DNA of 62,320 bases, the filler included. It is 5 parts of 5 records of this genome, joined end to end, with 100 filler letters (N's around TTAATTAATTAA, not from the genome) between each part and the next. Parts side by side here need not be neighbours in the genome. Positions count along the whole stretch, not along the records: positions 39,232 to 55,433 come from SRR2962707_5388; 4 more parts are not named here. One strand, 5' to 3'. Shown piece after piece: positions 38,307-55,171 of the stretch; the stretch's first letter is position 1, and each line of letters starts with the position of its first letter. A program made the position numbers and the translations under genes. The notes below the pieces were generated by a model, which worked only from the letters and a program-made list of their open reading frames with translations, did no database searches and was not told where the DNA came from.

Positions 38307-39089
38307 TTAGGCAGAACCCTCATCTGCCTCCGGCGGCGCGATAACCGCCTGTGCCTTTGCCGCCTTGAAATTGGCGATGGCCGCCTTCTTTTCAGCCGCG
38401 ACGGATTTGATCTTATCCAGTTTTTGCTGCCGGGTGTGTCGAGAGCTGTACCATTCTTCGAATAGCATCTCGATCAGCTCGATAAGGGCTTGCGCCTCAC
38501 CTGGGTCGACATCAACGATAAGGCTGATGTCTTTCTCCATATGGGCGCCGATGTTGCCTATTTCACGGATACTGTCGATGGCTTCTACTGTTTCCGCCTG
38601 CACGCCTTTCGGTGCATTGCCACTGTCGACCTGAGCTTTGAGCTCTTTGATCTCGTCAACGAGACGGTTCTTGGAGATGTCACAGAAGTCTCGGATCATT
38701 CCCTGCAAACAGCGCCTTGCGAGGGTAGCTGAAGCTTTCGGGCTCTTGTCCCTGATCAGGCATGCTTCGTAGTAATCCTCACGCAATGGGGCGGGGATAT
38801 AGGATGGCTGCGGTTTAGCCGAGGATTCTGGGCGAAGGCGCCACCGCCCTAGTTCCTCTTCAGTGAGGCCCATATAGCCGTTTGGCTTATGACCCCATTT
38901 ACCAAGCACCGTAGTGAGGGTGACCTCATTGCAGGCAGGATTGGCGCAGCGAACTCCTAGGACAGCAACACCAACGCGGCCATGCTTCGTTACTCCAACA
39001 TCGACGTGAGTTTCGTTGCTAAAGGATGTCGCGTTAGTCACTACCTGGTGGGCGCCACAAAAGTCGCATTTCCATTCAAAGTTCGCCAT
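38307..39089 (-). CDS. DUF4145 (HEPN-like) protein with an N-terminal Zn ribbon
   Basis: CDFC..CANPAC, EDYYEACLI..ASATLARRCLQ and IREIGNIGAH (RxxxNxxxH). Confidence 0.85.
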   Translation of the reverse strand: MANFEWKCDFCGAHQVVTNATSFSNETHVDVGVTKHGRVGVAVLGVRCANPACNEVTLTTVLGKWGHKPNGYMGLTEEELGRWRLRPESSAKPQPSYIPAPLREDYYEACLIRDKSPKASATLARRCLQGMIRDFCDISKNRLVDEIKELKAQVDSGNAPKGVQAETVEAIDSIREIGNIGAHMEKDISLIVDVDPGEAQALIELIEMLFEEWYSSRHTRQQKLDKIKSVAAEKKAAIANFKAAKAQAVIAPPEADEGSA

Positions 39090-39231: not shown

Positions 39232-39388
39232 GCTCGCGCTCGATATCCATCGAGTCGAGCACCTGCTCTTTCATCTCGCGCACGGTCAACCCGCCGCAAA
39301 GCTGGATGAGGCGGTCGGCGAGGGTCGACTTGCCGTGGTCGATATGGGCAATGATCGAGAAATTACGGATATGGGAAAGGTCGGTCAT
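39232..39388 (-). CDS. lepA: Elongation factor 4, 5' part only
   Basis: [39 protein letters not shown]. Confidence 0.95.
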
Positions 39389-39514
39389 GGGGCCTACTGG
39401 TGCTCGGACGGGCCCATATAGCATTGGCCGGGGCGCAAGCCAATTGGGGGATTCAGAGGTCGTTTTTGAACTCCCCAAGCCCCCCCAGCACGGCTTGATC
39501 ACGACCCTGGTGAT

Positions 39515-40420
39515 CTAGGAGAAACGACGACTTTGGCGATATTTCAGGCGCTCTTTAGATGTCATGTTCTCATAGCCATCAGAATCGCCTTCTTCATCAG
39601 CGGTCTCGTACCAAAGCATGATCAGTGCATATCCCTTCGCCCGGAGACAAATCTGTTCATAGAGACTCGGAGCCCTTTTACCCCATTCCACATCTATCCA
39701 CGTTTCCGGAAGTACGGAGTCCACATTACCGGGCGTTCCTTCTTTAAGACCTTTGCGGTGGAACGTGGAACCAGTCGGCACCTTTTGCCCTTTCCTGACT
39801 ACAACAAAAGGGAATCGGCGCTGATTTCTGTAAGTGCGCAAAACAGCGCCGTTGTGGACTAAAACAAAAGCAACTGCTGCGGGGTGATATTCCGTATACG
39901 TACGGCTCATTGCTTCACGGCTAACGTCAAAGTTATCCGCCAACTCAAACACATGTTCGATGCTGGGCTCCTTAGAAACAAGGAGTGGTCGCAGCAATGG
40001 CGGCGGCATCAGCATGAGCGATGAGAATCTATTGGCTTCCACTTCCATCCGCGCACGCCGTTCTTGCTCCTTTACGTGAAGCAGCGCCATGTCGCTCGCG
40101 GAACACAGGAACTGACCCTCCTTATCAGGAACATGAGTGGCTATAAGGAAGTGACCAAGTTCATGTCCCACAGTGAACCTTCGCCTTTGCCGCGTCAGCC
40201 CCTGCTTCACGAGGATGATTCCCGTACTCCGGGAAGTATCCGTGAGAAGTCCGCCGACAAAGCCTTCTGTTTTCAGGCTTTGGATCTCTTGGATATCAAG
40301 TTGATAGCAAAGCTCCTCAATTGGCACGGGGTACATCAGACTTGGCTCGCTCTTGAGAATTAGCTGAACGAGCCCATCCGGCGAGCCTCGGTCGGCCAAA
40401 TCTATTCGGGCGACTGCCAT
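39515..40420 (-). CDS. ImmA/IrrE-family Zn metallopeptidase, CapP-like
   Basis: RRRFTVGHELGHF (HExxH), EVEANRFSSLMLMP, HTH-like LADNFDVSREA and a C-terminal GAF-like region; 301 aa. Confidence 0.88.
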   Translation of the reverse strand: MAVARIDLADRGSPDGLVQLILKSEPSLMYPVPIEELCYQLDIQEIQSLKTEGFVGGLLTDTSRSTGIILVKQGLTRQRRRFTVGHELGHFLIATHVPDKEGQFLCSASDMALLHVKEQERRARMEVEANRFSSLMLMPPPLLRPLLVSKEPSIEHVFELADNFDVSREAMSRTYTEYHPAAVAFVLVHNGAVLRTYRNQRRFPFVVVRKGQKVPTGSTFHRKGLKEGTPGNVDSVLPETWIDVEWGKRAPSLYEQICLRAKGYALIMLWYETADEEGDSDGYENMTSKERLKYRQSRRFS

Positions 40421-40429
40421 GAGCAGATA

Positions 40430-40750
40430 TCACTCTTTGGGAGTTTTTAGACGTTCCATCAGTAGGCGAATTGTTTCTCGATCAGATACGTCAAGCGATT
40501 TTAGCTCTCGATATAGCGCCACCAGATCGGTGTCTTCACCTTCCGCATCCGGATTCTCGCCAACTAAATCTGCAACGCTGACTCTGTAGTAGCTAGCAAT
40601 CTTCGTAAGGAGCTCAAGAGAAGGATTCTTGCTTCTTCCTGTTTCTAAATCCCAGATGTGAGTCTTTGATGCGCCTATCGCGTCAGCCACATCTTGAAGC
40701 GACTGTCGGTGCTTCACTCTCAGTTCTTTCAACTTTTGACCTACTGCCAT
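40430..40750 (-). CDS. XRE-family HTH repressor, CapH-like
   Basis: GQKLKELR..SLQDVADAIGASKTHIWDLETGRSKNPS plus a short helical C-terminus; 106 aa; 9 nt upstream of the peptidase. Confidence 0.88.
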   Translation of the reverse strand: MAVGQKLKELRVKHRQSLQDVADAIGASKTHIWDLETGRSKNPSLELLTKIASYYRVSVADLVGENPDAEGEDTDLVALYRELKSLDVSDRETIRLLMERLKTPKE

Positions 40751-40800
40751 CAAAACCCCTGCCGGAATCACGAAAGGCGCGCTCGCCATGGCGGCACGCC

Positions 40801-40872
40801 GTACGATTATTATTGGACGAATTTATACCGGCAGGATTGACGCCACAAGCCGTTCGATGTATCTGTACGAAT
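40801..40872. promoter_or_regulatory. Divergent promoter region with two imperfect GTWCGAT..ACGAAT sites
   Basis: 40801-40822 GTACGATTATTATTGGACGAAT and 40852-40872 GTTCGATGTATCTGTACGAAT flank a TTGACG -35-like hexamer. Confidence 0.4.
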
Positions 40873-40919
40873 ACGGGGGTTCATACCGGACTCTCGATTT
40901 CTTTACGAGAGGATCGAAC

Positions 40920-41102
40920 ATGTTTCAGTCTGTAACGAAGGCCCCGATTGGGACCACGGCGCGTACCGGCGAAGTTTGCCCGGAGAGCGGCGTGTGGAAG
41001 GTGAGCGGCACGCCGTCGACCACGGCACCGATCGCGAAGGGCAATCGCATGCCGCCCTACAACAACAAGGCGGTTACGTGGATGCTCATCCAGTACGCAT
41101 GA
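40920..41102 (+). CDS. 60-aa YjzC-like small protein
   Basis: GAGAGG RBS; TGEVCPESGVW..APIAKGNRMPP..VTWMLI matches the YjzC-like G-x-x-x-P-x-SG-x-[YW]..G-x-x-[FM]PP..W pattern. Confidence 0.75.
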   Translation: MFQSVTKAPIGTTARTGEVCPESGVWKVSGTPSTTAPIAKGNRMPPYNNKAVTWMLIQYA

Positions 41103-41179
41103 GCCCGGTGTGAGTATGAGAGGGGCGGTCGCGGGATAACTAGAGGCAACAGCCTGCCCGCGACCAATCCCGAGAAGTC

Positions 41180-42007
41180 CTACGATCTCTTCCACTCCGC
41201 TCGGCGCTTCTCTATCCAGGCCTTGACCCCTTCCTTGTAGTCGGGGTGCTTAATCATCTCTTCCAGCAGCCGCTCGGCGGCCACCACAGCGCCTGCCGCG
41301 TCCCGGTGGAGGTCGGTATAAATCTGCTTCTTGGTCTCACGGAGCGAGCCGGGCGAGACGCCGTCCGCCATCTTGCGGGCGTAGTCCATGACATGGGGCA
41401 TGAGGTCGGCTTCAGCCACGAGCTTGTTCAGGAAGCCCATTTCCATCGCCTCTTCCGAGGTGAAGACCCGGCTCGACAACAGGATGTCGTTTGCATGGGT
41501 CAGCCCGACGATGCGCGGCAGCACCCATGAAAGCCCAAACTCAGCCGGGAAATTGAAGCGGCCATGGGCGGCGGTGAATTTCGCGCCGGGGACGCAGAAG
41601 CGGAGGTCCGCAAAGGAAGCAAGCACGAGGCCAACCCCCGCCGCCGCACCGTTGATCGCGGCGATGACGGGTTTCGTGAGGCCAAAATGATAGGCGAAGG
41701 TCGCGTCGAACTCGGGCGCAACGCCATAGCCGGGCTTGGCAATGTCGTCGCTCGTGCCGCTGTCATAGCGGCCTTTCTCCGAGTGGCCTTCCAGCGCCGC
41801 CATATCCGCGCCCGCGCAGAAGGCTTTCCCCTCCGGGTCACCCGTCACGACAATGACGCGAACGGCAGGGTCCTTGTCGGCCTCCGCCAGCACCCAGCGA
41901 TATTCGGTGTGCATGCGGCCGGTCCAGGCGTTGCGGCGCTTCGGGCGCGACAGCGTGACCGTGGCGACACCGTCTGCGATGTCGTAGCGGAGGGCTTTAA
42001 GTTCCAT
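41180..42007 (-). CDS. Enoyl-CoA hydratase/isomerase family protein
   Basis: LSRPKRRNA, AFCAGADM and KPVIAAINGAAAGVG. Confidence 0.92.
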   Translation of the reverse strand: MELKALRYDIADGVATVTLSRPKRRNAWTGRMHTEYRWVLAEADKDPAVRVIVVTGDPEGKAFCAGADMAALEGHSEKGRYDSGTSDDIAKPGYGVAPEFDATFAYHFGLTKPVIAAINGAAAGVGLVLASFADLRFCVPGAKFTAAHGRFNFPAEFGLSWVLPRIVGLTHANDILLSSRVFTSEEAMEMGFLNKLVAEADLMPHVMDYARKMADGVSPGSLRETKKQIYTDLHRDAAGAVVAAERLLEEMIKHPDYKEGVKAWIEKRRAEWKRS

Positions 42008-42011
42008 CGTC

Positions 42012-42812
42012 CTACTCTGCGCTCTCGATATAGCTGCGGATGATCTCGACAATGCGCGCGGGCTGCTCCGGCAACATGGCGTGACCGGCATTGGGCAGTT
42101 CGACCAGCGTCGCGCGCGCGCCGAGGCGTTTCTTCAGGTCATGCGCGTTTGCGGGCAGCGCGATTGTATCTTCCGTCGCCTGCACGACGAGGATCGGCTG
42201 GCCGCCCGCCTCCCACCAGTCCTCGACCGGCGTTGCGCGCACGGCGGAGGACTGCATCAGCATGACTTGTCCGCACCAGCCGCCGCGCCAGACTTCCGGG
42301 TCGTTTCCCTTGGCGAAAAAACCGTAGCGCACGCATTCGATGTGTTCGTCCGGCGACAGGCTCTCGTCGAAGCAGCCGATCAGAGCCTTGCGGGCCTCCG
42401 CAGGCATCTCGATGAGCCCGCCACAGGCAAGCAGGCCCACGCGGGAAACAAGTTCGGGCCTATCCGCCGCCGCCGTTCGCGCGAGGCGATTGCCGAAGGC
42501 ATGGCCGATCAGCATGACGGGCGCCGCCGTCTGTGTTTCGATCACGGCGGCGACATCCTCCGCGAGATCGTGCAACGTCAGCCCTTCCATCGGGCCTTCG
42601 CTGCCGCCAAGTCCGCGGGGCTCGGGCAGCGTCACGCGGCAGCCCTTGCCCGCCAGCGCTACCGCCACTTCATCGAAATCGGTTCCGGGCCGCCCGAGAG
42701 ATGCCAGCATGACGACGGGCTTGCCGCCCGCCCTGCCGATCGTGCGGCCTGTCAGCAAGACAGCGTGGCCGTCGCCGTCGGTCCTTGAGATGCTGTAGCT
42801 CTCGAAATCCAT
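42012..42812 (-). CDS. Alpha/beta-hydrolase-fold protein; the nucleophile elbow reads GHAFG
   Basis: PRGLGGS, LIGHAFGNRLA and NAGHAMLPEQP. Confidence 0.85.
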   Translation of the reverse strand: MDFESYSISRTDGDGHAVLLTGRTIGRAGGKPVVMLASLGRPGTDFDEVAVALAGKGCRVTLPEPRGLGGSEGPMEGLTLHDLAEDVAAVIETQTAAPVMLIGHAFGNRLARTAAADRPELVSRVGLLACGGLIEMPAEARKALIGCFDESLSPDEHIECVRYGFFAKGNDPEVWRGGWCGQVMLMQSSAVRATPVEDWWEAGGQPILVVQATEDTIALPANAHDLKKRLGARATLVELPNAGHAMLPEQPARIVEIIRSYIESAE

Positions 42813-42842
42813 TCACCCCTCCCCGAGCGGATGACGGACAGT

Positions 42843-45278
42843 CTAGCTTCTCAGCGTGCCGCCTGTCGCCTTTTCGACCGCCGCGACGATGCGCTTCGAC
42901 ACGCCCTCGATTTCCTCGTCTGTCAGCGTCTTCTCGACGGGCTGCAGCGTCACTTCGATGGCGAGCGACTTCTGCCCCTCGCCGAGAGACCCGCCCTCAA
43001 AGACGTCGAAGAGCGAGACATCGGCAATCAGCTTCTTGTCGGCGCCGCGTGCGGCGCGAAGCGTCTGCTCCGCCGTCACGCTCTCCGCCACCACGAAAGC
43101 GAAGTCGCGACGCAGCGGCTGGAGGTCCGACATGTCGAGCGGCGGCTTCGAGCGTGTGGCTTTCCGCTTCGGCTCCGGGATCGCGTGCGGGAATATCTCG
43201 AAGGCAACCATTGGTCCGGCGACGTCCATCTCATCCAGCACGCGCGGATGAAGCTCACCGAAATAGCCGATGACATTCTTCGGGCCGAGACGGAACACGC
43301 CGGAGCGCCCCGGGTGATACCAGGAGGGCGCATCCGCCGCGATCTGGAAGCTCGCGACCGGCGCGCCGAGGGCTGCGAGAAGCGCGACCGCGTCTTCCTT
43401 CGCGTCCATCGCCTCGACAGGACCGCTCTTGCCCTGCCAATGACGGCCGCTGCCAAGCGGGCGCGCCGTGCCGCGCCTTATGCCGCTTGCCGCAAGCACC
43501 TGACCCGACACCTCATCGCTTTCGAATTGCTGGCCCACCTCGAACATCGCGATGTCCGCGTGGCCCCGCGCCATGTTGCGTCCCGCCGCCGCGATCAGGC
43601 CCGCAAGCAGGCTCGGCCGCATATGGCTCATGTCCGACGAGATCGGATTGGCGAGCTTCAGGCTCGACACGGCGTTGCCGCCGCCGAAAAGCTCCGCGGC
43701 GCGTTCGGAAATGAAAGACCAGGTGACCGCCTCGACAAGCCCGCGCGCGGCAAGCGCACGGCGCGCCATCCGTTCGCGGCGCTGCCGCGTGGAAAGCACC
43801 GGCGTCGCTACCGCATGAAGACGCGGCAGCGCAACCGACTTCACTTCGGAGAGCCCATGCACGCGCACGACCTCTTCCACAAGGTCCGCCTGTCCGTCGA
43901 TATCCGGGCGCCAGGAGGGCACGGAAACGGAGAGCTTCGCGCCCGCTTCCGCAACGCCGAAGCCGAGCGCAGAAAGGATCGCGACCGCTTCCGATTTCGG
44001 GAGTGCGAGGCCCGTCAGCTTTTCGATGCGTCCGGTGTCGAACTCGATTGTCTTCGATGTGTCGGGCACTTTCCCCGCGACAACAACATTGGACGGCTCG
44101 CCGCCGCACATGCCGAGGATCATCTTCGTCGCGAGTTCGAGGCCCGGCAGCACGAATTCCGGGTCGACGCCGCGCTCGAAGCGGTAGCGTGCGTCCGAGA
44201 CGATGCCCGTGTCGCGGCCCGTGCGCGCCGTGCGGTAGGGATCGAAGTAAGCGCTCTCGACAAAGACATCGACGGTCGCTTCCGTCGAGCCGCTTTCCTC
44301 GCCGCCCATCACACCGCCAAAGCCCAGCACCTGCACATCGTCGGCGATGACGCACATCTCGGGACCGGCTTCATATTCCTTGCCGTCGAGGGCGAGGAAT
44401 TTCTCGCCCTTGCGGCCGAGCCGCGCGCGGATATTGCCCTTGAGCTTCGCCGCGTCATAGACGTGAAGCGGGCGGGCGCGGTCGAGCGAGATGAAGTTCG
44501 TGATGTCGACCAACGCATTGATCGGGCGGAGGCCAACCGCCTTCAGATATGTCTGCAGCCATTCGGGCGAGGGGCCGTTCTTCACGCCACGGATCACGCG
44601 GCCCGCGAAAACAGGACAGGCGTTTTCTGCGCCCGCCGGGAAATCGAGTTCGATGCCGACCGGGCTTTCGAAGGTGCCGGGTACGGGCGAGAGGTCGCCT
44701 TCGAGAAGACGGCCAAGACCCGCCGCTGCGAGGTCGCGCGCGACGCCATAGACGCCGAGACAATCGGGACGGTTCGGCGTGATCGCAATTTCGATCACGG
44801 GGTCATTGCGGCCAAGCACTTCGGCTGCGGGCGTGCCGACCTTCCAGTCGCCTTTCAGGTCGATGATGCCTTCGTGATCTTCCGAGAGTTCGAGTTCGCG
44901 CTCCGAACACATCATGCCGTTCGACTCGACGCCGCGGATTTTCGTCGGCTTCAGCACCATGCCGGTCGCAGGGATCGTCGCACCGGGCGGCGCGAATATA
45001 CCTGTCATGCCGGCGCGTGCATTCGGCGCGCCGCAGACGACCTGCAACTGCTTCACTTCACCTTCGACAAGCGCCTCGACTTTCAGCACCTGCAGTTTGT
45101 CGGCGTCGGGATGCGGGCCCGCTTCCAGAACTTTCGCGACAGAGAAGACCGAGAGCTTTTTTGCCGGATCTTCCACACCCTCGACCTCAAGGCCGAGCAT
45201 GGTCAGCTTCTCGACGATCTGGTCGAGCGAGGCATCGGTTTCGAGCGGGTTCTTCAGCCAGCTGAGCGTGAACTTCAC
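42843..45278 (-). CDS. pheT: Phenylalanine-tRNA ligase beta subunit
   Basis: [31 protein letters not shown] and RRDFAF. Confidence 0.98.
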
Positions 45279-46366
45279 GACGAGAGCCCTCCCGCGAGCG
45301 TCGGCACATCGAGCGCCGCGAAACCATAGTGACGCAGCCAGCGCAGATCGGCCTCGAAGAAGGCGCGCAGGTCCGGGATGCCGTATTTCAGCATCGCAAT
45401 CCGATCGATCCCCATGCCGAAAGCAAAGCCCTGATATTTTTCCGGGTCGATGCCGGCTGCCTTCAAGACGTTCGGATGGACCATGCCGCAGCCGAGAATT
45501 TCCAGCCAGTCATCGCCTTCGCCGATGCGGATTTCATTGCCGAGACGCGCGCAGCGCACATCGACTTCCATCGACGGCTCCGTGAACGGGAAGAAAGACG
45601 GGCGCATGCGAAGCTCCACGCCGTCCACCTCGAAGAAGGCACGCAGGAATTCTTCCAGCGTCCACTTCAAATGTCCGAGATGCGTCGTCTCGTCGATAAC
45701 GAGGCCTTCGATCTGGTGGAATTGCGGCGTATGCGTCTGGTCGCTGTCATTGCGATAGGTACGGCCGGGGCAGATGAAACGGAAGGGCGGCTTGCCCGCT
45801 TCCATGGTGCGCACCTGCACCGGGCTTGTATGCGTGCGGAGCAGCATGCGCGAGCCGTCGGCTTTCGGTTCGAAATAGAATGTGTCGTGCATTTCACGCG
45901 CGGGATGACCTTCGGGGAAGTTCAGCGCGCCGAAATTATAGTGGTCCGTCTCGATATCCGGGCCCTGCTCCACGGCAAAGCCCATATCGGCGAAGATCGC
46001 GACGACTTCGTCCCACACCTGGCTCAGCGGATGGATGCGGCCCGTCTCGAGCGCTGAGGCCCGCACCGGCAGTGTCACATCGATCTTTTCGCCTGCGAGC
46101 CGCGCTTCGAGAACTGACTCGTGCATTGCCTGCTTGCGCGCGGCGAGCGCCTCCGTCAGGCGGTCCTTCAGGCCGTTGAGCTTCGGGCCCATCTCCTTGC
46201 GCTCTTCGGGCGACATACCGCCGAGCCCCTTCATCAGCTCGGAGACGCGGCCCTTCTTGCCCAGCGCTGCCACGCGCACGGCTTCGAGCGTGTCGATATC
46301 CACCGCATCGGCAATTGCCGCGGCGAATTCCGCTTCCAGTTTTTCGAGATCGGCGCTGTCGGTCAT
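45275..46366 (-). CDS. pheS: Phenylalanine-tRNA ligase alpha subunit
   Basis: [26 protein letters not shown] and GFAFGMG. Confidence 0.98.
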
Positions 46367-46580
46367 CTTCTCACCGGCTTCTGATCGTTTCGCGAAAACA
46401 CGTGTTCACTCAAATCGCCCGATGCCTGCGCAAGGCAGGCTCTCGGGTGACATGAGGGAAACGGCGTGCGAACGATGCTATCGACCGGCGATCCGCCTCA
46501 CCCCCGAGAACGGCACATGCTGACACGCACGCGCCCCGGACGGGTGACCGGCTCTGGCTGTCCTTCGGCCAAGCGCACTC

Positions 46581-46937
46581 TTAGTTGAGCGCGGCTTCCG
46601 CCTGGGCGACCAGAGCCTTGAAGGCCTCGGGCTCATGGATGGCGAGATCGGAGAGCACCTTGCGGTCCACCTCGATGCCAGCCTTGGCGAGGCCGTCGAT
46701 AAATCGCGAATAGGTCAGGCCGTGCTCGCGAACGCCCGCATTGATGCGCTGGATCCAGAGCGCGCGGAAGTTGCGCTTGCGCGTGCGACGGTCGCGATAG
46801 GCATACTGGCCGGCCTTCTCGACGGCCTGATTGGCCGTGCGGAAGGTATTCTTGCGGCGGCCGTAATAGCCCTTCGCCTGCTTGATGATCTTGCGGTGCC
46901 GGGCATGGGCGGTAACGCCCCTTTTGACGCGCGACAT
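46581..46937 (-). CDS. rplT: 50S ribosomal protein L20
   Basis: [24 protein letters not shown]. Confidence 0.99.
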
Positions 46938-46973
46938 GAGAATTCTCCTCGAAAGAAAATGGGACCTAAGCGG

Positions 46974-47180
46974 TTATTTCAGGCCGTAGGGCGCGAAAAT
47001 CTTCACAATCCGCTTCGCATCGGGCTCGGCGACGAGCGTCGTGCCGCGCAGGTTGCGGATCTGCTTGTTGGTCCGTTTGATCATGCCGTGCTGCTTGCCG
47101 GTCTGGCCGCGCTTCACTTTTCCGGTGGCGGTGAAGCTGAAACGCTTCTTGACGCCACTCTTGGTCTTCAGCTTGGGCAT
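46974..47180 (-). CDS. rpmI: 50S ribosomal protein L35
   Basis: [14 protein letters not shown]; upstream of rplT. Confidence 0.98.
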
Positions 47181-47270
47181 TTTGCTCTCCGTGTTTTAAG
47201 GAACCTGTCCTTGAAGACCTTGAATTCATTGAAGAATTCGGAAGGTGGCGGGTCCGGGTCTTGGCATTAC

Positions 47271-47307
47271 GGGCGGTCACGGCATGCCCTACAGGCCGGG
47301 CCACCCC
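47271..47307 (-). promoter_or_regulatory. Candidate structured leader of rpmI-rplT
   Basis: On the minus strand GGGGTGGCCCGGC-CTGTAGGGCAT-GCCGTGACCGCCC forms an imperfect hairpin about 90 nt before rpmI. Confidence 0.35.
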
Positions 47308-47369
47308 GAAGCGGCGGATTTATAAGGGAAAAGACCCGCGCGTCAAGCAGTGCGGGCGGGTTTCCGTCC

Positions 47370-47416
47370 ATACGCAGGCTTGATGCGCATGGATAATGCG
47401 CATAGACTATGCGCAT
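47370..47416. promoter_or_regulatory. Array of ATGCGCAT palindromes, putative CcdA operators
   Basis: Exact copies at 47383, 47396 and 47409, and a degenerate ATACGCAG at 47370; 13-nt period. Confidence 0.7.
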
Positions 47417-47636
47417 GCCAAAGAAAGCGGTCAATCTCTCGGTCGATGCAGGCCTTCTCGCCAAGGCGAGGGAGCAGCAGATGAACCTGTCTTCCCTCCT
47501 CGAAGAGGCGCTTTCCAAAAGCGTTCGGGAGAAGGAAGAAAGGCGCTGGCGCGAGGAGAACAAGGCCGCAATCGAAGCCTCTAACCGCTTCACCGACGAC
47601 AACGGCATCTTCGGTGATGACTTCCGGTCGTTCTGA
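47409..47636 (+). CDS. ccdA: CcdA-family antitoxin
   Basis: KKAVNLSVDAGLL..MNLS..RWREENKAAI..GIFGDDFRSF. Confidence 0.9.
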   Translation: MRMPKKAVNLSVDAGLLAKAREQQMNLSSLLEEALSKSVREKEERRWREENKAAIEASNRFTDDNGIFGDDFRSF

Positions 47637-47953
47637 TGGCGGTTATGGATATTCACCCCAATCCCGAACCGCGAACGCGCGGCGCCCTGCCCTACATCAT
47701 CGAGTTGCAGGCCGATCTGCTGAGCGATCTCAACACGCGCCTGGCCGCTCCCTTCGCACCCGCGCGGCTCTACAAGGGCACCGTGCCGCGCCTCAATCCA
47801 GTCATCGAGATCGGCGGCGAGCCGCATGTGCTGCTCACACAGCAAATGGCGGCATTGCCGAAGCGGCTTCTCACTGCGCCGCCTGTCGCCAATGCCGAAG
47901 CGCATCGCTACGAGATCATTGCAGCGGTCGACTTCCTCGTGACCGGCATCTGA
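47636..47953 (+). CDS. ccdB: CcdB-family toxin
   Basis: PYIIELQADLLSDLNTRLAAP, RLNP and EIIAAVDFLVTGI; coupled to ccdA. Confidence 0.9.
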   Translation: MAVMDIHPNPEPRTRGALPYIIELQADLLSDLNTRLAAPFAPARLYKGTVPRLNPVIEIGGEPHVLLTQQMAALPKRLLTAPPVANAEAHRYEIIAAVDFLVTGI

Positions 47954-47966
47954 CGGAGACAAGAAC

Positions 47967-48494
47967 ATGAGCCGATTTTTCGGAAACGTCTGCCAGAACG
48001 GTTATGTCGTGCGCGACATCGAGGCAGCGCTGAAGCATTGGACGGAGGTCATGGGCGTCGGGCCGTTCTATTATATCGACCGCGTGAAGTGCGACTGGTT
48101 CACCTACAGGGGAAAGCCCTCGCCCGTCGAAATGAGCATCGCGCTCGGCAATACCGGCGACCTGCAGATCGAACTCATCCAGCAGCGCAACGATGCGCCT
48201 TCCATGTATATGGATTTCCTGAATGCGGGGCGCGAAGGCCTGCAGCACATGTCCTACTGGACGAGCGACTACCAGGCGCAATACGACCGCGCCATCGCGT
48301 CAGGTTTCAAGGTCGGGCATGAGGGACAGATCGGCGGCGAGCAGGGCCGCTTCGTCTATTTCGACACCGAGACGCATCCCGGCACCGTGATCGAAATGTC
48401 GGATATCAGCGGCTCGAAGGGGCAGTTCTTCGAACACATCCGAAAGGCCGCCATCGATTGGGACGGCAGCAACCCGGTCAGGCACGTCCGCTAA
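47967..48494 (+). CDS. VOC/glyoxalase (methylmalonyl-CoA epimerase-like) protein
   Basis: QNGYVVRDIE, QIELIQ, EGLQHM and FVYFDT..VIE. Confidence 0.88.
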   Translation: MSRFFGNVCQNGYVVRDIEAALKHWTEVMGVGPFYYIDRVKCDWFTYRGKPSPVEMSIALGNTGDLQIELIQQRNDAPSMYMDFLNAGREGLQHMSYWTSDYQAQYDRAIASGFKVGHEGQIGGEQGRFVYFDTETHPGTVIEMSDISGSKGQFFEHIRKAAIDWDGSNPVRHVR

Positions 48495-48521
48495 AGCGAA
48501 CGGACCTCACCGGCGCTCAGG

Positions 48522-49079
48522 TCAGCCGCAATAGACCCTCGAAACATTGTCATCCGCGTCCAGTTCGACATTCAGCCGGTCGGCGCGGAAATCCTGCGTC
48601 ACGGCCTCGTCCGGGCGGATCACGCGGATGGTCGCGACATCTTCACCGGCCGAAATCTCGCTTTCGGCTTCGGAATAGGACTTGCCGGTCCAGGTGCTGC
48701 CGAGCGCGTCGGCCGCTGCCTGACAGCCCGCCGCTTCATCATCCGTTCCGGCGATTGTTGCGGGATCGGTGTTCTCGGCTGCCGCTTCCTCGCCCATCGA
48801 CATGTCATCCGACGACATGTCGCTGCCGGGCATATCGTCGGCAGGCATGTTGCTCTGCGGCATGTCACCCGCGGGCATGGTGCTGTCGGCGGTCCGGTCC
48901 ATCGCGCCCGGCGTCGTGCCACCCGGCTCGGAGGTCATGGGCACGGCGCGCTCCGACGATTCCATCTCGCCCGGCACGGCATTGCCGGCCTGCTCTTCTT
49001 CGTTCTGGTCGCAGGCCGCGACCATCATCAGGGCCGCGACGGCGACCGAGCCCAGCAGGTGCTTTGACGAATATTTCAT
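48522..49079 (-). CDS. Lipoprotein with a C-terminal peptidase inhibitor I78 domain
   Basis: Lipobox VAAC, a Met/Asp/Pro-rich linker, then RVIRPDEAVTQDFRADRLNVELD..VYCG. Confidence 0.85.
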   Translation of the reverse strand: MKYSSKHLLGSVAVAALMMVAACDQNEEEQAGNAVPGEMESSERAVPMTSEPGGTTPGAMDRTADSTMPAGDMPQSNMPADDMPGSDMSSDDMSMGEEAAAENTDPATIAGTDDEAAGCQAAADALGSTWTGKSYSEAESEISAGEDVATIRVIRPDEAVTQDFRADRLNVELDADDNVSRVYCG

Positions 49080-49252
49080 GTCTCTCTCCCGTTTATCGTG
49101 AGCCTGTCGGCACAGCCGCGCCCGCGAGGGCAGCATTCACTGCCGGACCGTTCCCTCATCAATGCGTTCAGGCTGAGGTGGTTCCATGACGGAACGCCTT
49201 TTCCGGCGCCGCCACGGTCATATCCGTCCGATTTGCCGCGTGTGGTGGGAAC

Positions 49253-50101
49253 TCAGTCCGCCGCCGTCTGGCCCTCGTACATTTCATCATACCCGCGCTG
49301 CCAGATCAGCTTCGAGCCATCTTCCCGGCCAAGCATCGCGATCGGGTCCACATTATCGACATGCCCGTAAAGGCCGCGATAGACCGAATAGCCGCACAAT
49401 TCCTGCAGACGGCGCGGAAACTTGCGCGCCTCCTCCAGCGGAATGCCAAGCTGCTGGTTCTCCTGCTGGCGCATGAAGCCCGCGCAATAATAGTTCGCGA
49501 CGCAGAAGCGGCGGTCGTCCGAGCGGTTGGTGCCGCCCGCATGCCACAGGCTGCCGTGCCAGAAGAGCACCGAGCCCGCGGGCATCACGCCCGCAACCGT
49601 GTCGCAATCAATGTCGTAATCCGGCATACCGCCCGCCTTGTGGCTGCCCGGCACCAGCCGCGTCGCACCATTCTCTTCCGTGAAGTCCGAAATCGCCCAA
49701 ACGCAGTTCAGCGTGAAGGGCTGGTGCGGCTTCGGCACAGGGATCAGCTGATCGTCCGCATGCAGAGGTTGCGCGCCCTGCCCCGGACACAGCGTGATGG
49801 AACTCACGGACGACACCTGCAATTCCTCGTCGAGCACCTTCTCGGCGAAGGGCAGCGTCGCCGCGTGCATCGGTATCTTCCAGAAGGTCGGGCCGTGAGC
49901 CAGCAGGTTGTAGATGCGCACCGTGCGCTTGCCTTCGAAGTCCGTCTCGCGAAAACCCATGTCATTGTCGCGTTCGACTCGCAGCAGCTCATCCTTGATC
50001 TCGGCGACAAGGTCCGGCTCGATCACATTCTCGAAGATCACATAGCCGTCGCGTTCGAAATCCGCGTATTTCGCTTCCAGGTCGATCTTTCCCTTCGGCA
50101 T
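49253..50101 (-). CDS. Phytanoyl-CoA dioxygenase family (Fe/2OG)
   Basis: QPLHADD, DFTEENGATRLVPGSH and GSLWHAGGTN. Confidence 0.9.
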   Translation of the reverse strand: MPKGKIDLEAKYADFERDGYVIFENVIEPDLVAEIKDELLRVERDNDMGFRETDFEGKRTVRIYNLLAHGPTFWKIPMHAATLPFAEKVLDEELQVSSVSSITLCPGQGAQPLHADDQLIPVPKPHQPFTLNCVWAISDFTEENGATRLVPGSHKAGGMPDYDIDCDTVAGVMPAGSVLFWHGSLWHAGGTNRSDDRRFCVANYYCAGFMRQQENQQLGIPLEEARKFPRRLQELCGYSVYRGLYGHVDNVDPIAMLGREDGSKLIWQRGYDEMYEGQTAAD

Positions 50102-50206
50102 CTCTCCCCCTTTTCCAACACCGGTTTGTCCGGCTTCCTTCCGGCGGACCGGCTCCCCCAAGACCGCCGATTTCAGCCTAGCGCATCGGGCGCGTGATTT
50201 CCAGTT

Positions 50207-50225
50207 TGCGTATTTTAAGTACGCA
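50207..50225. promoter_or_regulatory. Palindrome TGCGTA-N7-TACGCA in the divergent promoter
   Basis: Inverted repeat seen directly, about 105 nt upstream of the dioxygenase start. Confidence 0.45.
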
Positions 50226-50270
50226 TATTTTCTGATGGCGAAACCCTTGCCGGACACGGCATCCTTTCTT

Positions 50271-50288
50271 ATAGTGTATCTACACTAT
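50271..50288. promoter_or_regulatory. Putative MarR operator ATAGTGTA-TC-TACACTAT
   Basis: Perfect 8-bp inverted repeat 24 nt before the Fe-S gene; its 12-nt core recurs before the MarR gene. Confidence 0.7.
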
Positions 50289-50312
50289 ACGGATGAAGGG
50301 GAGACGGACGGC

Positions 50313-51665
50313 ATGGCTCACGATCTCGCCGGGGAAGAGCATCCCGATGTGGCGCGCTGGCGTGCCAGCGGCACTTCCGCAGCAGAGGCAGCGCTTACAT
50401 CGGAAAGCCTGCGCGCGCTGATGCTCGATTGCGGCGCGGACGATTGCGGCTTCGTCGCCGTTTCCGATCCCGCCATCGCCGATCAGCAGGCATGGATTTC
50501 GGCTCTCCTGCCAAACGCGAAAACGCTCATCAGCTTCGTCGTCCGCATGAACCGCGACACGGTGCGCACCTCCGTCCGCTCCGTCGCGAATGAGGAATTC
50601 CACCAGACTTACGACGACGTGAACCATGTCGCCCGCAAAGCGGTGAGGCGATTGGAAGAGATGGGTTTCGGCGCGGTCAACCCCGCAGCCGCCTTCCCGA
50701 TGGAGGCACAGGCCTATCCGGCGGGGATGCGCGTCATCTCGCACAAGCCGATCGCAGAAGCCGCAGGGCTCGGCAAGATGGGGCTCCACCGCAATGTCAT
50801 TCATCCACGCTTCGGCAGCTTCATCCTGCTCGGCACCATCGTCATCGACCGCGAGGTAAGCGAACTCTCAGTGCCGCTCGACTATGCGCCCTGCCTCGAC
50901 TGCAAGCTCTGCGTCGCCGCCTGCCCGGTCGAAGCCATCGGCATGGATGGCTCGTTCAACTTCTCCGCCTGCTACACGCATAACTACCGCGAGTTCATGG
51001 GCGGCTTCGTCGACTGGGTGCATCAGGTCGTGGAATCGGAAGACGCCGACGACTACGACACGCGCGTGACACCCGGCGAAAGCGTTTCGATGTGGCAGAG
51101 CCTTTCCTTCAAGCCCGGCTACAAGGCCGCCTATTGCCTGAGTGTCTGCCCGGCAGGCTCGGACGTGCTGGGGCCATATATGGAAGACAAGGTCGAGTAC
51201 CGCAAGCGCATCCTCGATCCGCTGCTGGCGAAGCCGGAGACCGTTTATGTCCTGAAAAACTCGGATGCCGAAGAGAGCATCCCGAAGCGCCTGAAGACGA
51301 AGGAAGTGAAACTCGTCGACTACAATATTCCGTCCGACAATCCGTTCTCCTTCCTGTTCGGGCTCACGCTCACTTTCCAGCGCCGCAAGGCACGCGGCAT
51401 CGACGCGACGCTCGCGCTCACCATTTCCGATCACGGGCCGCTTCATACGACGGTGCGTATCCGTAATTCGAAGGTCGAAGTGGAGTTCAAGGCCCCGGAA
51501 ACCTCCGACGCCTCGCTCACGGTCGACTGGAAGACGCTGCAGGAGATTTTCCGCGACGGGCTTTCGCTCGCGGATGCGGCGGCCGGGCGCGGTGCGGTCC
51601 TTTCAGGCGATGCGGAAAAGGCACAAGCGATCCGCGACTGCTTCCCGGTCTACCGGGTGCGCTAG
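50313..51665 (+). CDS. QueG/reductive-dehalogenase-like Fe-S protein with a C-terminal SCP2-like domain
   Basis: GADDCGF, SHKPIAEAAGLGKMG..HPRFG, CLDCKLCVAACPVEAI and YCLSVCP; C-terminal DASLTVDWKTL..LSGD (SCP2-like). Confidence 0.8.
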   Translation: MAHDLAGEEHPDVARWRASGTSAAEAALTSESLRALMLDCGADDCGFVAVSDPAIADQQAWISALLPNAKTLISFVVRMNRDTVRTSVRSVANEEFHQTYDDVNHVARKAVRRLEEMGFGAVNPAAAFPMEAQAYPAGMRVISHKPIAEAAGLGKMGLHRNVIHPRFGSFILLGTIVIDREVSELSVPLDYAPCLDCKLCVAACPVEAIGMDGSFNFSACYTHNYREFMGGFVDWVHQVVESEDADDYDTRVTPGESVSMWQSLSFKPGYKAAYCLSVCPAGSDVLGPYMEDKVEYRKRILDPLLAKPETVYVLKNSDAEESIPKRLKTKEVKLVDYNIPSDNPFSFLFGLTLTFQRRKARGIDATLALTISDHGPLHTTVRIRNSKVEVEFKAPETSDASLTVDWKTLQEIFRDGLSLADAAAGRGAVLSGDAEKAQAIRDCFPVYRVR

Positions 51666-52096
51666 GTCTTCGCGATTAGCTGGTGGAGCGACTTCTTCAC
51701 GGAAGGCCAGTTCTGGCCGAGCGCGCCTTCTATTCCGTCTTGGGCCTCGCGCCAGAGCGGCAGCGCTTGGGTCAGCCGCTTCCGGCCCATCTTGGTGAGC
51801 TTCAACCCGAGCGAGCGGCCCTCGCCGCTCGGCGCACTCTCGATCAGCCCCTCGTCTTCCAGCAGCTTCACGTTGCGCACGAGGCTCGAGCGTTCAAGCG
51901 CCAGCATGTCGGCAAGCGCGGTGAGCGATTTTGCACTCCCCTCCTCGACCGCGATCAGCAGCGTGAATTGCGTGATCTTGAGGCCGGCGGGCTTCAGCGC
52001 CTTGTCATAGGCACGCGTCAGCTTGCGCGCCGCCATGCGCGTCCTGAGCGCCGCGCAATTCTCGCGCACTTCTTGCTCGGTCACTGTCAGGCTCAT
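51662..52096 (-). CDS. MarR-family regulator
   Basis: CAALRTRMAARKLTRAYDKALKPAGLKITQFTLL, LERSSLVRN and ALPLWREAQ. Confidence 0.92.
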   Translation of the reverse strand: MSLTVTEQEVRENCAALRTRMAARKLTRAYDKALKPAGLKITQFTLLIAVEEGSAKSLTALADMLALERSSLVRNVKLLEDEGLIESAPSGEGRSLGLKLTKMGRKRLTQALPLWREAQDGIEGALGQNWPSVKKSLHQLIAKT

Positions 52097-52112
52097 GCTT
52101 CACCCGCTTTCT

Positions 52113-52124
52113 GTGTAGATACAC
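52113..52124 (-). promoter_or_regulatory. Second copy of the putative MarR operator
   Basis: Reads GTGTATCTACAC on the minus strand, 16 nt before the MarR ATG; identical to 50274-50285. Confidence 0.7.
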
Positions 52125-52140
52125 ACTAGACATATGCGAA

Positions 52141-52163
52141 AGGCCGCGCAAGCAGCGCGGCCT
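52141..52163 (-). terminator. Hairpin after the LLM gene
   Basis: AGGCCGCGC-AAGCA-GCGCGGCCT. Confidence 0.5.
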
Positions 52164-52182
52164 CTCAACACGTTCCGGCGGA

Positions 52183-53433
52183 TTACTCCGCCGCGTTTGT
52201 GCTCTGGTTCACCTGCGCCTTTTTCACTGAGGCCTGCACCAGCGGGATCTCGTGGTCTTCCAGCGGCTTCATCCAGTTCTTGCGCTTCAGCGCGGCCTCG
52301 ATGTAAGGCGCGAGTTCCTTCTGCTTCTTCGCTTCGCGCGCCGCCGCTTCCTGCTTGAACTCAGGCATCACGTCGGACGCAAACAACTCCAGCGAGTCGC
52401 AGATGTCCGAATGCTTGTTGCGGCCGGCCTGCTGCATGAAGATGACCTGGTCGACGCCCGCATTCTGGAAGGCGCGGAGATGCGCGCGCATGTCGTCCGG
52501 CGTGCCGATGCCGGTCGCGATGGCGTCGGCGCGCTTGGCCGCGTCGATTACTTCCTGCGTGCGGTTGCCGCGCGCCTTGATGTAGTCGCCCCACATGTCG
52601 GTGCGGCCCGGCACCGTGTCGTGCGCGACAAGCGCGTTCAGCGCATAGCCGAAGAATTCGAAGCCTTCATGCCCGCGCCGGATCGCCTCTTCGCGGTCTT
52701 CGTGCAGCGAGAAGTTCGAGACCATGGCGATGTTCGCGTTCACGGTATGGCCGATGGGCTTGCACTCGTCCGACTTGATGATGCCGTAATAGATTTCCGA
52801 CCAGGCCTTGGCTTCTTCGGGATCGACGAAGGAGAAGGCCAGCGCGCCGACACCGAGCGACGCCGCCACGCGGATCGTGTCGCGATTGGTGCAGGCCATC
52901 CACATCGGCGGGTGCGGCTTCTGCACCGGCTTCGGCAGCACGTTGCGGCAGGGCATCGAGAAATATTTGCCCTCGAAACCCGGATAAGGGTCAAGCACCA
53001 GCATGTTCGCGATCTGCTCGCCCGCCTCGATCGCCATGGCGCGCTTTTCCTTGGCGGGAATGTGGAAGCCGCCGAGTTCGAGCCGCGTCGCGCCTTCGCC
53101 GATGCCGAATTCGACACGGCCCTTCGACATGATGTCGAGCGTCGCAAGGCCTTCCGCCGTCCGGGCCGGATGGTTGTAATTCGGTATCACCTGCCGGATG
53201 CCATGTCCGAGACGAATGTTCTTCGTCACCGACGCCGCCGCCGCGAGGAACACTTCCGGCGAGGACGAATGCGAATATTCGTCGAGGAAGTGATGCTCCA
53301 CTTCCCAGGCGTGATCGAAACCGAGCTTGTCCGCCAGCACGATCTGTTCCAGCGCCTCGTGGAACAGGCGCTGCTCGTCGCCATCGTTCCAGGGCTTGGG
53401 CAATTGCAGTTCGTAGAACACTCCGAATTTCAT
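52183..53433 (-). CDS. Luciferase-like (LLM) flavin-dependent oxidoreductase
   Basis: MKFGVFYELQ, WEVEHHF..SSPEVFL and PKPVQKPHPPMW. Confidence 0.93.
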   Translation of the reverse strand: MKFGVFYELQLPKPWNDGDEQRLFHEALEQIVLADKLGFDHAWEVEHHFLDEYSHSSSPEVFLAAAASVTKNIRLGHGIRQVIPNYNHPARTAEGLATLDIMSKGRVEFGIGEGATRLELGGFHIPAKEKRAMAIEAGEQIANMLVLDPYPGFEGKYFSMPCRNVLPKPVQKPHPPMWMACTNRDTIRVAASLGVGALAFSFVDPEEAKAWSEIYYGIIKSDECKPIGHTVNANIAMVSNFSLHEDREEAIRRGHEGFEFFGYALNALVAHDTVPGRTDMWGDYIKARGNRTQEVIDAAKRADAIATGIGTPDDMRAHLRAFQNAGVDQVIFMQQAGRNKHSDICDSLELFASDVMPEFKQEAAAREAKKQKELAPYIEAALKRKNWMKPLEDHEIPLVQASVKKAQVNQSTNAAE

Positions 53434-53582
53434 GGTCGACTCTCCCCGATTTTATTCTTTGCAGCCTCAAGCCGAAGCCAGGACCGCATTGTTATGAATA
53501 TCGATGGGAGAGAGTGTAGTCGGCAAATGCCGCCGTCGCGACCCCCGGGGGGACATCGCCGCGTCAGGCCGCCTTGCCGCGA

Positions 53583-53843
53583 TCAGTGCAGGCCCGCGCC
53601 GCTTCCCTGGTCGTGAACCACGCGCCGGGAAGCACGGAACGCCAGTTCCGCTCCGGCCGCCTCGCGCCGGCGTTCGTTCTTGTCGGTCTCGAGGATGCAG
53701 CGCAGGTCCTCGTCGGCAAACAGGCGCAGGTCGACCGGCCCCGTTGCCTCGATGGCGCGGCGCATCACGTCTTGCGTGTCGTAAAAAGACCTTCGTCTAC
53801 GCCGGCGGGTCGTGAGACGCCGCCACAGTTCCGATATGGACAT
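53583..53843 (-). CDS. Possible small hypothetical protein
   Basis: 86-aa ORF in an otherwise intergenic gap; no recognisable motif. Confidence 0.35.
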   Translation of the reverse strand: MSISELWRRLTTRRRRRRSFYDTQDVMRRAIEATGPVDLRLFADEDLRCILETDKNERRREAAGAELAFRASRRVVHDQGSGAGLH

Positions 53844-55117: not shown

Positions 55118-55149
55118 AAAAGGCCCGGTCGCAAAACCGGGCCTTCCTT
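55117..55149. terminator. Hairpin terminator between the convergent GDPD and infC genes
   Basis: AAAAAGGCCCGGT-CGCAAA-ACCGGGCCTT. Confidence 0.7.
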
Positions 55150-55171
55150 CTTCGTCTCGCAGGTGGCGGCC

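Follow-up and report, generated by a model that had tools for sequence, protein, structure and literature searches.

A CapH/CapP regulatory pair that probably has a single, highly conserved 60-aa protein as its only cargo

Results

Organization of the locus

The subject of this study is a block of three genes at positions 39515-41102 of a 62,320-bp stretch of DNA, the whole of which we call the window. On the minus strand the block encodes a peptidase and a helix-turn-helix (HTH) repressor, identified below as CapP and CapH, and a single small gene, whose 60-aa product we refer to as the small protein, is transcribed divergently from them. At least five contigs are joined in the window, a pseudo-molecule with runs of N around a TTAATTAATTAA linker at 16163, 26924, 39176 and 55478. 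The block lies on one contig of this concatenated draft assembly (39233-55430); what lies left of 39232 belongs to a different contig and supplies no context. The genes of the block and their two neighbours are:

39515-40420, minus strand: capP, encoding a 301-aa M78/IrrE-type zinc metallopeptidase (Pfam Peptidase_M78, 8.7e-14)
40430-40750, minus strand: capH, encoding a 106-aa XRE HTH protein (Pfam HTH_31, 9.5e-11; HTH_3, 9.1e-9)
40751-40919: intergenic region of 169 bp between capH and the small gene
40920-41102, plus strand: small cargo gene, a 60-aa open reading frame (ORF) divergent from capH-capP, with an AGGA ribosome-binding site 8 nt upstream
39233-39388, minus strand: lepA fragment (TIGR01393, 1.9e-21), 52 codons remaining, cut by the contig end
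41180-42091, minus strand: convergent enoyl-CoA hydratase gene (Pfam ECH_1, 1.6e-47; NCBIfam PRK06210, 8.9e-84)

The capH gene precedes capP in one operon, with a 9-bp gap between the two. A preliminary description of this DNA had reported the peptidase, the HTH gene, the divergent small gene and the convergent neighbour, and all of them are present where it placed them. It had also called the peptidase and HTH genes AT-rich, in agreement with G+C fractions of 0.518 for capP and 0.467 for capH as against 0.657 in the next 3 kb and 0.631 in the remaining contig; the block as a whole is at 0.520 and the small gene at 0.617. The lepA flank that it named is lepA sequence, but comprises merely the first 52 codons of the gene. 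Its statement that no cyclase or effector operon follows the small gene holds as well: the next gene is the convergent enoyl-CoA hydratase gene, whose stop codon lies 78 bp beyond the small gene, and between 41103 and this gene there is no ORF for a CD-NTase cyclase or effector of the kind that marks a cyclic oligonucleotide-based antiphage signaling system (CBASS).

The repressor and peptidase are CapH and CapP

The 301-aa peptidase matched the PADLOC capP model at 1e-52, with profile positions 5-242 of 242 falling on residues 14-272, and every other PADLOC defence model matched at least 40 orders of magnitude more weakly. A phmmer search of PDB sequences returned a single match, the CapP of Thauera (7T5T). 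The HELGH motif at residues 86-90 (H86-E87-L-G-H90) and a third ligand, E126, align with the zinc-site residues of 7t5t_A, and C106, in the motif 'egqfLCSasdm', aligns with the 'sfqCSdadm' cysteine-switch loop of the same structure; the roles of these residues are taken from the accessible text of Lau et al. (10.1101/2022.04.27.489752), a source available to us in part. All of 19 CapP homologues have H86, E87, H90 and E126, and at least 90% of them retain C106. We consider C106 a candidate cysteine switch; the switch loop occurs in 33% of CBASS CapPs, and is thus characteristic rather than obligatory.

An AlphaFold2 model of CapP built from the 19 homologues had a predicted local distance difference test (pLDDT) score of 89.2. 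Its top Foldseek match was again 7T5T (E=9.3e-17 over 286 columns, template modelling (TM) scores 0.65/0.69), followed by PprI/IrrE (8SLN, 3DTI). Because 7T5T is the top fold match, the model indicates that the three-domain CapP architecture of peptidase, helical linker and C-terminal GAF domain is present. Past the end of the PADLOC profile the protein carries a C-terminal tail of 30 residues, acidic and then basic. We note that most CapPs from the related loci described below end in a conserved acidic stretch followed by W-x-x-P-x-F-R-R; the longer acidic-then-basic tail is that of the window's CapP and its three closest relatives (read from the 40273-40420 region of capP and the C-terminus of the CapP alignment).

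The HTH protein matched the PADLOC capH model at 3.5e-22 over profile positions 6-100 of 103, and its top PDB match was the HTH domain of CapH (7t5u_A, 3.7e-8), with DdrO and SinR next. In an alignment of this protein with 17 homologues, 17 of the 18 sequences carry a [LM][FY]R[QED] motif, which in the window's protein places Y80-R81 at the position of the published cleavage site; CapH is cleaved at F82|R83 (10.1101/2022.04.27.489752, available text). An aromatic-Arg site for CapP cleavage and a C-terminal helix for oligomerisation are characteristic of CapH. Y80|R81 is a candidate CapP cleavage site by this alignment. An alternative start of the HTH gene, at 40789, which would give 119 aa, was rejected, the 17 aligned homologues beginning at the 106-aa start.

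We identify the peptidase as a full-length CapP from its sequence, motifs and fold, and the HTH protein as CapH from its PADLOC and PDB matches and its motif. The preliminary description had proposed both identities, and had read the peptidase as an HExxH enzyme of the IrrE type, from the sequence alone; the profile, motif and structural comparisons agree with it on each count.

The small protein is a distinct and strongly constrained family

The small protein has 1279 homologues at E<=1e-3, the top 120 of which are 73-89% identical to it. A scan of 185,579 species genomes found a relative encoded in 449 of them, and our analyses of loci use the best 80 of these 449, numbered L001 onwards. These 80 loci come from Alpha-, Beta-, Gamma- and Deltaproteobacteria, Bacteroidota, Verrucomicrobiota, Planctomycetota, Latescibacterota, Acidobacteriota, Actinomycetota, Spirochaetota and Bdellovibrionota. 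Comparison of the last 52 codons of the window gene with each of them gave a median proportion of synonymous differences (pS) of 0.73 and of nonsynonymous differences (pN) of 0.14, for a pN/pS of 0.18; pN was below pS in 77 of the 80 pairs, and the remaining three are probably out of register owing to the gapless extraction. The small protein is ~80% identical across phyla, and since synonymous sites are near saturation, this high identity reflects constraint rather than recent spread. Judged by its codons, the small gene is genuine and has been held under very strong purifying selection.

Across 48 aligned sequences with identities down to 38%, C20, W26 and W54 are invariant and G17, P21, G24, P45 and L56 nearly so, and the subfamily carries the motif PIGTxAxTGExCPESGVW...MPPY...W. 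From its sequence the protein is basic and free of hydrophobic segments, and an AlphaFold2 model (pLDDT 87.5) is all-beta with four strands.

The likeness to YjzC that the preliminary description had claimed stands for some relatives of the small protein, since 12 of 48 match YjzC at E<=0.1 (best 2.8e-6), but not for the protein itself, which reaches E=0.026 and 15.3 bits against the Pfam YjzC model (PF14168), below the gathering cut-off of 25. With Pfam thresholds relaxed to E of 10, only YjzC and TOH_N matched; neither DUF3892 (PF13031) nor DUF2188, which we take to be PF09954, appeared, and a search against PADLOC gave no match. The nearest named ESM Atlas clusters are YjzC (score 0.87), a lead only, and the nearest clusters overall are unnamed or carry the uninformative automatic name 'putative Sel1'. 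The small protein thus appears, from these profile comparisons, to be a distinct, highly conserved branch that is distantly related to YjzC and not a member of that family.

Three further pointers lead to immunity proteins. The family profile matched the C-terminal 26 residues of the DUF1911/PoNi type VI immunity protein 9VY2 (weakly, E=0.6), NCBIfam returned a weak match to the C-terminus of TaeI immunity proteins (E=0.028), and the ESM Atlas lists a TsiV-bearing cluster at 0.81. None of the three is significant and none was seen by Foldseek, and we regard them as a lead for an inhibitor-like role, not as evidence of one; the accessible part of the paper describing 9VY2 (PMC13377157) does not discuss the matching C-terminal region.

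The three genes recur together at unrelated sites

Searched by tblastn with the window's CapH and CapP, 17 of the 80 loci proved to encode both proteins directly upstream of the small gene and divergently from it, as in the window, and ORF clustering added an eighteenth such compact triad (L041). Two looser cases (L023, L069) have a CapP-like gene ~1.1 kb away, bringing loci with a CapP-like gene to 20 of 80. In contrast to the small protein, the CapPs of these triads are only 19 to 59% identical to that of the window. In 14 of the 18 compact triads the next ORF of at least 60 aa past the small gene is on the opposite strand, and the downstream genes differ: Tn3 transposase (L004), GmrSD (L014, L021), aconitase (L032), an RTX protein (L038), Cpn60 (L054), a TetR regulator (L003) and a cytidylyltransferase (L012). 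Flanking ORF clusters are common only to the near-identical pairs L011/L012 and L014/L021. Triad G+C is below that of both flanks in many loci, as in L003 (0.54, with flanks at 0.68 and 0.67) and L032 (0.53, with both flanks at 0.63). Taken together, these observations describe the triad as a self-contained, transferable module that recurs at unrelated genomic sites.

The preliminary description had left open whether the block is a complete minimal three-gene module or a stump that remained when a defence operon was deleted. On the second reading CapH/CapP would once have controlled a longer operon (CBASS, Bub-like or similar) with the small gene at its head. This idea has some appeal. Defence genes lie beyond the small gene in L028, L018, L024, L031 and L034, the triad in L041 is followed by a DUF3892-like ORF, and the first gene of the CapH/CapP ubiquitin-like operon in the available text of Lau et al. 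(10.1101/2022.04.27.489752) is a 'hypothetical protein'. Since compact triads recur, the next ORF is mostly convergent and the flanks differ, with 14 of the 18 ending in a convergent gene at differing sites among differing neighbours, we consider a stump very unlikely and the complete module the better description. At the window locus itself the low-GC islet ends within ~80 bp of the stop codon of the small gene, and 41103-41179 holds no gene fragments. Moreover, the longer operons mostly use other upstream genes (WYL, M78-UvrD) instead of CapH/CapP. Triads of HTH, peptidase and small gene therefore recur as such, and homologues of the small gene are not always followed by a longer operon.

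The low-GC insertion could also be read as a decayed mobile element or prophage whose ImmR/ImmA-type switch is the HTH-peptidase pair, the small gene being an unrelated neighbour; such pairs do control mobile elements, according to the portions of the literature available to us. Yet the islet holds neither an integrase or excisionase gene nor any phage gene, and a search for flanking repeats (one copy sought in 39389-39514, the other in 41103-41179) found none and revealed no insertion scar. In 16-18 independent loci the pair is again linked to the small gene and the promoter layout is shared, and PADLOC and PDB comparisons place the pair with CapP/CapH over other M78 pairs. We regard this explanation as extremely improbable.

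A conserved box overlaps the putative small-gene promoter

The intergenic region between capH and the small gene contains the following elements, all on the plus strand:

40800-40821: box O1, a 22-nt variant of CGTWMGAT-N7-TACGAA read from the sequence, capH-proximal and 51 bp upstream of O2
40837-40842: inferred -35 element TTGACG of the small-gene promoter, assigned by conservation
40851-40871: box O2, the conserved 21-bp sequence CGTTCGATGTATCTGTACGAA, which overlaps the inferred -10 region and is a candidate CapH operator
40874-40896: stem-loop at the start of the predicted leader, with a 9-bp stem and a 5-nt loop

Sixteen aligned triad leaders are colinear: TTGAC, invariant in 16/16, is followed after ~9 nt by the 21-bp box CGTWMGAT-N7-TACGAA, a hairpin, a ribosome-binding site and the ATG, and the distance from TTGAC to the start codon is 81-96 nt (86 in the window). 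O2 is the sole match to the box in the window at <=3 mismatches, where 0.04 were expected. A looser box pattern at <=2 mismatches occurred 23 times in 3,001 bp of triad intergenic DNA as compared with three times in 206,892 bp of other DNA of the same loci. At least one box is present in 16 of the 18 triad intergenic regions, and two boxes 50 bp apart are present in 7 of the 18; the scan used a fixed spacing and misses O1 of the window, which has one extra spacer base. O1 and O2 are candidate CapH operators on the strength of this pattern.

The hairpin was predicted at the same position in all 16 triad leaders although the sequences differ (z -0.1 to -3.7), and the covariation of the leader helix that we had named was 0.310 as compared with 0.214 after shuffling, a value that 0 of 500 shuffles reached. 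GTCCA-N3-TGGAC stands at the hairpin position in several loci. In the triad leaders (L001-L054) the hairpin may be a leader element of the RNA or, alternatively, a second palindromic site in the DNA.

The small gene also occurs without CapH and CapP

Sixty of the 80 loci have no CapP-like gene. An M78-domain protein is encoded immediately upstream of the small gene in 26 of 80, in three architectures: CapP-like (20), an M78-UvrD-PD-(D/E)XK fusion (4) and an HTH-M78 fusion (2). The four M78-UvrD-PD-(D/E)XK fusions, of 1137-1154 aa, are from Bradyrhizobium/Xanthobacteraceae (L018, L024, L031, L034; about 2400-10150), where the small gene follows the fusion and is itself followed by Metallophos and SMC-like genes or by multi-ubiquitin, DUF6791/ThiF and DUF6527 genes; the two HTH-M78 fusions precede the small gene in Phycisphaerales. 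In ten Bacteroidota loci the small gene comes after a pair encoding a TPR-histidine kinase and a LuxR-type response regulator and before arrays of small genes. These loci are L009, L016, L035, L042, L048, L051, L056, L067, L076 and L077, and their array genes include YidD-like, DUF4236, DUF4177, TerB, HSDR_N and DUF6232. In L028 (about 4400-7503) a WYL regulator, an HNH nuclease, the small gene and a CBASS cyclase (PADLOC, 1.4e-80) lie on one strand; here the small gene is preceded by another kind of damage-sensing regulator and followed by a classical defence operon. Other neighbours are Cas3, HerA, AbiLi, DndB, Fic, a staphylococcal-type nuclease, a DNA methylase and relaxases. A permissive Pfam scan covered 34 unexplained neighbour ORFs; the 13 of them that represent short divergent ORFs just upstream of the small gene in non-triad loci, together with their partners, gave no matches and hence no further regulators at that position.

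The recurrent proximity of M78 proteins raises the question of whether the small protein is a partner of the peptidase, acting as feedback inhibitor, co-sensor or substrate to reset or tune the switch. An M78 protein directly upstream in 26 of 80 loci, and in three architectures, is in line with this notion. In the other 54 loci, however, no M78 protein adjoins the small gene, plasmids carry the small gene with no M78 protein at all, and a WYL regulator or a histidine kinase with its response regulator can take the same position, which fits a shared regulatory logic better than a physical partnership. We therefore hold the partner hypothesis to be distinctly unlikely.

On plasmids, tblastn found 668 records matching the small protein. 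Fifty-four of these cover at least 80% of it, and they are mostly 5-7 kb ColE1-type plasmids of Enterobacteriaceae and Aeromonas; on a colicin-N plasmid the small gene stands alone, annotated as 'hypothetical protein'. Among large plasmids of Klebsiella and E. coli, many carry only a partial copy that lacks the first ~11 codons. The small gene is present in 41 of 5,426 complete E. coli genomes and full-length in five, and one unannotated chromosomal copy (L083, 7001-7169) lies between an HxsABCD cluster and DUF3223/SIR2 genes. Among the plasmid and E. coli matches listed, many fall under no annotated feature. A search of 50,697 phage records with the small protein gave no match. The LexA box has the consensus CTGT-N8-ACAG; a scan for it found none in the E. 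coli colicin-N plasmid locus (L081) and none in 77 of 83 loci, and provided no independent link to the SOS response.

Fusions provide another view of the family. A profile search of 1.84 billion cluster representatives returned 340 relatives at E<=1e-3. Twenty representatives longer than 110 aa were scanned, and eight have another domain N-terminal to the small-protein domain: TIR in three, and HNH, a response-regulator receiver, BrnA, a Kelch/galactose-oxidase-like domain and, below cut-off, a CopG-type antitoxin in one each.

These contexts bear on the idea that the 60-aa protein is a minimal abortive-infection or growth-arrest effector, overproduced after CapH cleavage and poisoning a universally conserved target. 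The known cargo of CapH/CapP consists mostly of cell-killing defence operons (10.1101/2022.04.27.489752, available text), repression appears tight, with a box over the -10 region, the extreme constraint across phyla fits a universal target, and the defence-island and mobile-element surroundings (AbiLi, HerA, Cas3 and DndB; SIR2/Hxs in E. coli) are those in which such an effector might be sought. Three-component toxin-antitoxin systems of the Xre plus M78/COG2856 type have as their third gene a toxin that the pair neutralises. For the third gene studied here, the context argues against a toxin role of this kind. No adjacent repressor is present in 60 of the 80 loci, the gene stands alone on small ColE1-type plasmids and runs co-directionally behind large genes elsewhere, the protein has neither a membrane segment nor an enzymatic motif, and in the fusions it is TIR or HNH that supplies the effector activity, the small-protein domain being an appendage. 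A toxic effector is therefore unlikely, and the designation of the small protein as effector in the preliminary description finds no support in the form given: the protein is encoded in 60 of 80 loci without CapH/CapP and alone on 5-7 kb plasmids, and it is appended to TIR and HNH.

Two observations stand apart from these comparisons. L057, a 1232-bp contig assigned to Streptomyces mutabilis, and L062, from Acinetobacter idrijaensis, encode identical small proteins and their next ORFs belong to the same cluster; the 1.2-kb 'Streptomyces' contig looks like a stray fragment of a small plasmid and not like Streptomyces DNA. In the window, the contig neighbouring that of the triad encodes a 260-aa DUF4145 protein (38307-39089, minus strand; Pfam 1.4e-9) that also matches PADLOC PD-T7-4 (5.7e-11) and adjoins a 258-aa ORF with no family assignment. 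It is a possible defence gene at a contig end, positionally unrelated to the triad, the TTAATTAATTAA joints being six-frame-stop linkers across which neighbourhoods are not readable.

Discussion

Our overall interpretation, which we hold with moderate confidence, is that the block is a complete, horizontally acquired module of capH, capP and a 60-aa gene that is released by damage, and that the 60-aa protein is a non-toxic binding module. The two halves of this statement differ in strength. It is highly probable that the locus is a complete CapH/CapP module whose cargo consists of the small gene alone; that the small protein is a non-toxic binding module is a tentative proposal, for which we would give somewhat less than even odds.

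In the published mechanism, the repressor CapH is cleaved by CapP once single-stranded DNA (ssDNA) has opened the cysteine switch of the peptidase, and expression of the cargo follows (10.1101/2022.04.27.489752; 10.64898/2026.05.16.725639; as given in the accessible parts of both). By analogy, a CapH dimer would occupy the two conserved boxes in the 169-bp intergenic region, and the box over the -10 region of the small-gene promoter would keep the small gene off. Binding to CapP of ssDNA arising from DNA damage or phage infection would release the cysteine switch, CapP would then cut CapH at Y80|R81, and transcription of the small gene would follow. This regulatory half of the mechanism is likely, given membership in a family whose mechanism has been published.

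The output of the switch is less certain. We propose that the 60-aa protein may be a small, basic beta-fold module that recognises something universal, such as a form of nucleic acid or a highly conserved cellular protein. Its role upon induction by damage would be that of an accessory, adaptor or inhibitor-like factor, and on TIR, HNH and receiver-domain proteins the module serves as a C-terminal appendage. A non-toxic binding module is favoured because the gene is tolerated with no dedicated repressor on ColE1-type plasmids and behind large genes, and because in the fusions the partner, TIR or HNH, supplies the activity. The receiver-domain fusion and the kinase/regulator neighbourhoods suggest an output or adaptor role, and near-total surface conservation across phyla points to a universal ligand.

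A number of observations weigh against the reading of the block as a self-contained, damage-released module with a binding protein as cargo. Concerning the promoter, a sigma-70 scan of 39300-41300 called no promoter, so that the -35 assignment rests on conservation, and the putative -10 hexamer is a poor one. The sequences on which the box was counted are those that yielded its pattern, which leaves the contrast between inside and outside as its sole control, and 2 of the 18 triad intergenic regions lack a box at <=2 mismatches. A MAFFT alignment of the 16 leaders gave no consensus structure in RNAalifold, and the hairpin consequently rests on per-sequence folds and on the structure that we named. 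Repression, damage induction and CapH cleavage are all attributed to the locus by analogy, through family membership.

As to the module itself, a co-directional ORF lies downstream in 4 of the 18 compact triads: a 287-aa ORF (L002), a 60-aa ORF (L019), an AraC regulator 258 bp away (L022) and the DUF3892-like ORF of L041, whose match to DUF3892 (E=9e-4) is below cut-off. Longer operons that start with the small gene do exist, with a CBASS cyclase (L028), with Metallophos and SMC-like genes (L018, L024) and with multi-ubiquitin/E1-like genes (L031, L034). The 80 loci are those most similar to the window's small protein, and their ORFs were called by a greedy longest-ORF heuristic, by which some short neighbours may be spurious. 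About 10 changes of the triad label are required on a tree built from 81 small proteins (59 columns, 34 open forks), and because this tree is poorly resolved it cannot separate one triad origin from several. Finally, no PDB structure matched the model of the small protein in Foldseek at E<=0.001 (best E=0.49, TM <=0.34), and because a fold match is lacking the term 'binding module' is an argument from context.

A bolder version of this interpretation would make the 60-aa protein the whole output of an immune or stress switch that DNA damage triggers. It would be a pan-bacterial mini-protein not named before, binding a universal target, for instance a damage-associated form of nucleic acid or a core replication or repair protein, and in TIR and HNH defence effectors its domain would be used again for sensing or targeting. 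We consider this version doubtful. If it were true, triads of CapH, CapP and the small gene would be among the smallest self-contained inducible defence or stress modules, and the small-protein family would be a missing component common to many defence islands, often skipped by annotation pipelines.

The interest of the locus lies mainly in the small protein, in its conservation, its spread, its fusions to effectors and its frequent lack of annotation. Because the family is conserved and widespread (449 species genomes, 668 plasmid records), often unannotated and fused to TIR and HNH, a functional assignment would annotate many loci at once. CapH/CapP is an established damage sensor that often guards tiny uncharacterised proteins. 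Since the cargo is reduced to one gene here, any phenotype of the module must come from the 60-aa protein, and the triad is thus a clean system for asking what a damage-induced small protein of defence islands does.

Relation to known systems

Apart from CapH/CapP, the same logic of a peptidase that cleaves a repressor upon DNA damage is seen in IrrE(PprI)/DdrO of Deinococcus and in ImmA/ImmR of ICEBs1. These control a regulon or excision genes, whereas the pair in the window is associated with a single adjacent small gene, and IrrE is described as having no cysteine switch (10.1101/2022.04.27.489752, available text). Proteins of the YjzC-like family (PF14168) are of similar size, about 55-60 aa, but the subfamily of the window's protein is far more conserved.

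Closest to the window are the CapH/CapP pairs of CBASS from E. coli MS115-1 and Thauera sp. K11 (Lau et al. 2022), which, as far as the accessible text describes them, have the same capH-capP order divergent from their cargo, an XRE HTH protein with a C-terminal aromatic-Arg motif and a peptidase with HExxH, switch Cys and GAF domain. The window differs in having no cyclase or effector, its single 60-aa gene being the whole cargo, and in the 30-residue C-terminal tail of its CapP past the profile. The site also differs: the box in the window overlaps the -10 region, whereas Lau et al. describe, in the same portions, a 22-bp site upstream of the -35 element (10.1101/2022.04.27.489752).

CapH/CapP has been found before with small proteins, namely with two DUF3892 proteins in Sulfitobacter sp. 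CW3 or with DUF2188 proteins (10.1101/2022.04.27.489752, legend to Fig. 6F, within the available text). In these systems as in the window, the switch guards one or two small uncharacterised proteins, and the triad in L041 adds a DUF3892-like ORF; the window's protein, unlike their cargo, matches neither family. A parallel is offered by CapK/CapS, which in 57 cases is followed only by a YegP homologue (PMC13373217, accessible portions). This arrangement shares with the window a DNA-damage-responsive pair of Cap regulators and a single small uncharacterised downstream protein, and differs in its kinase/STAS sensor and in the family of the small protein. In the available main texts on YjzC, DUF2188/DUF3892 or CapH/CapP, supplementary tables aside, we found no mention of the small-protein family as cargo; thus, as far as these sources go, the CapH/CapP switch is already known, also as the guard of small uncharacterised proteins only, and the addition made here is this cargo family.

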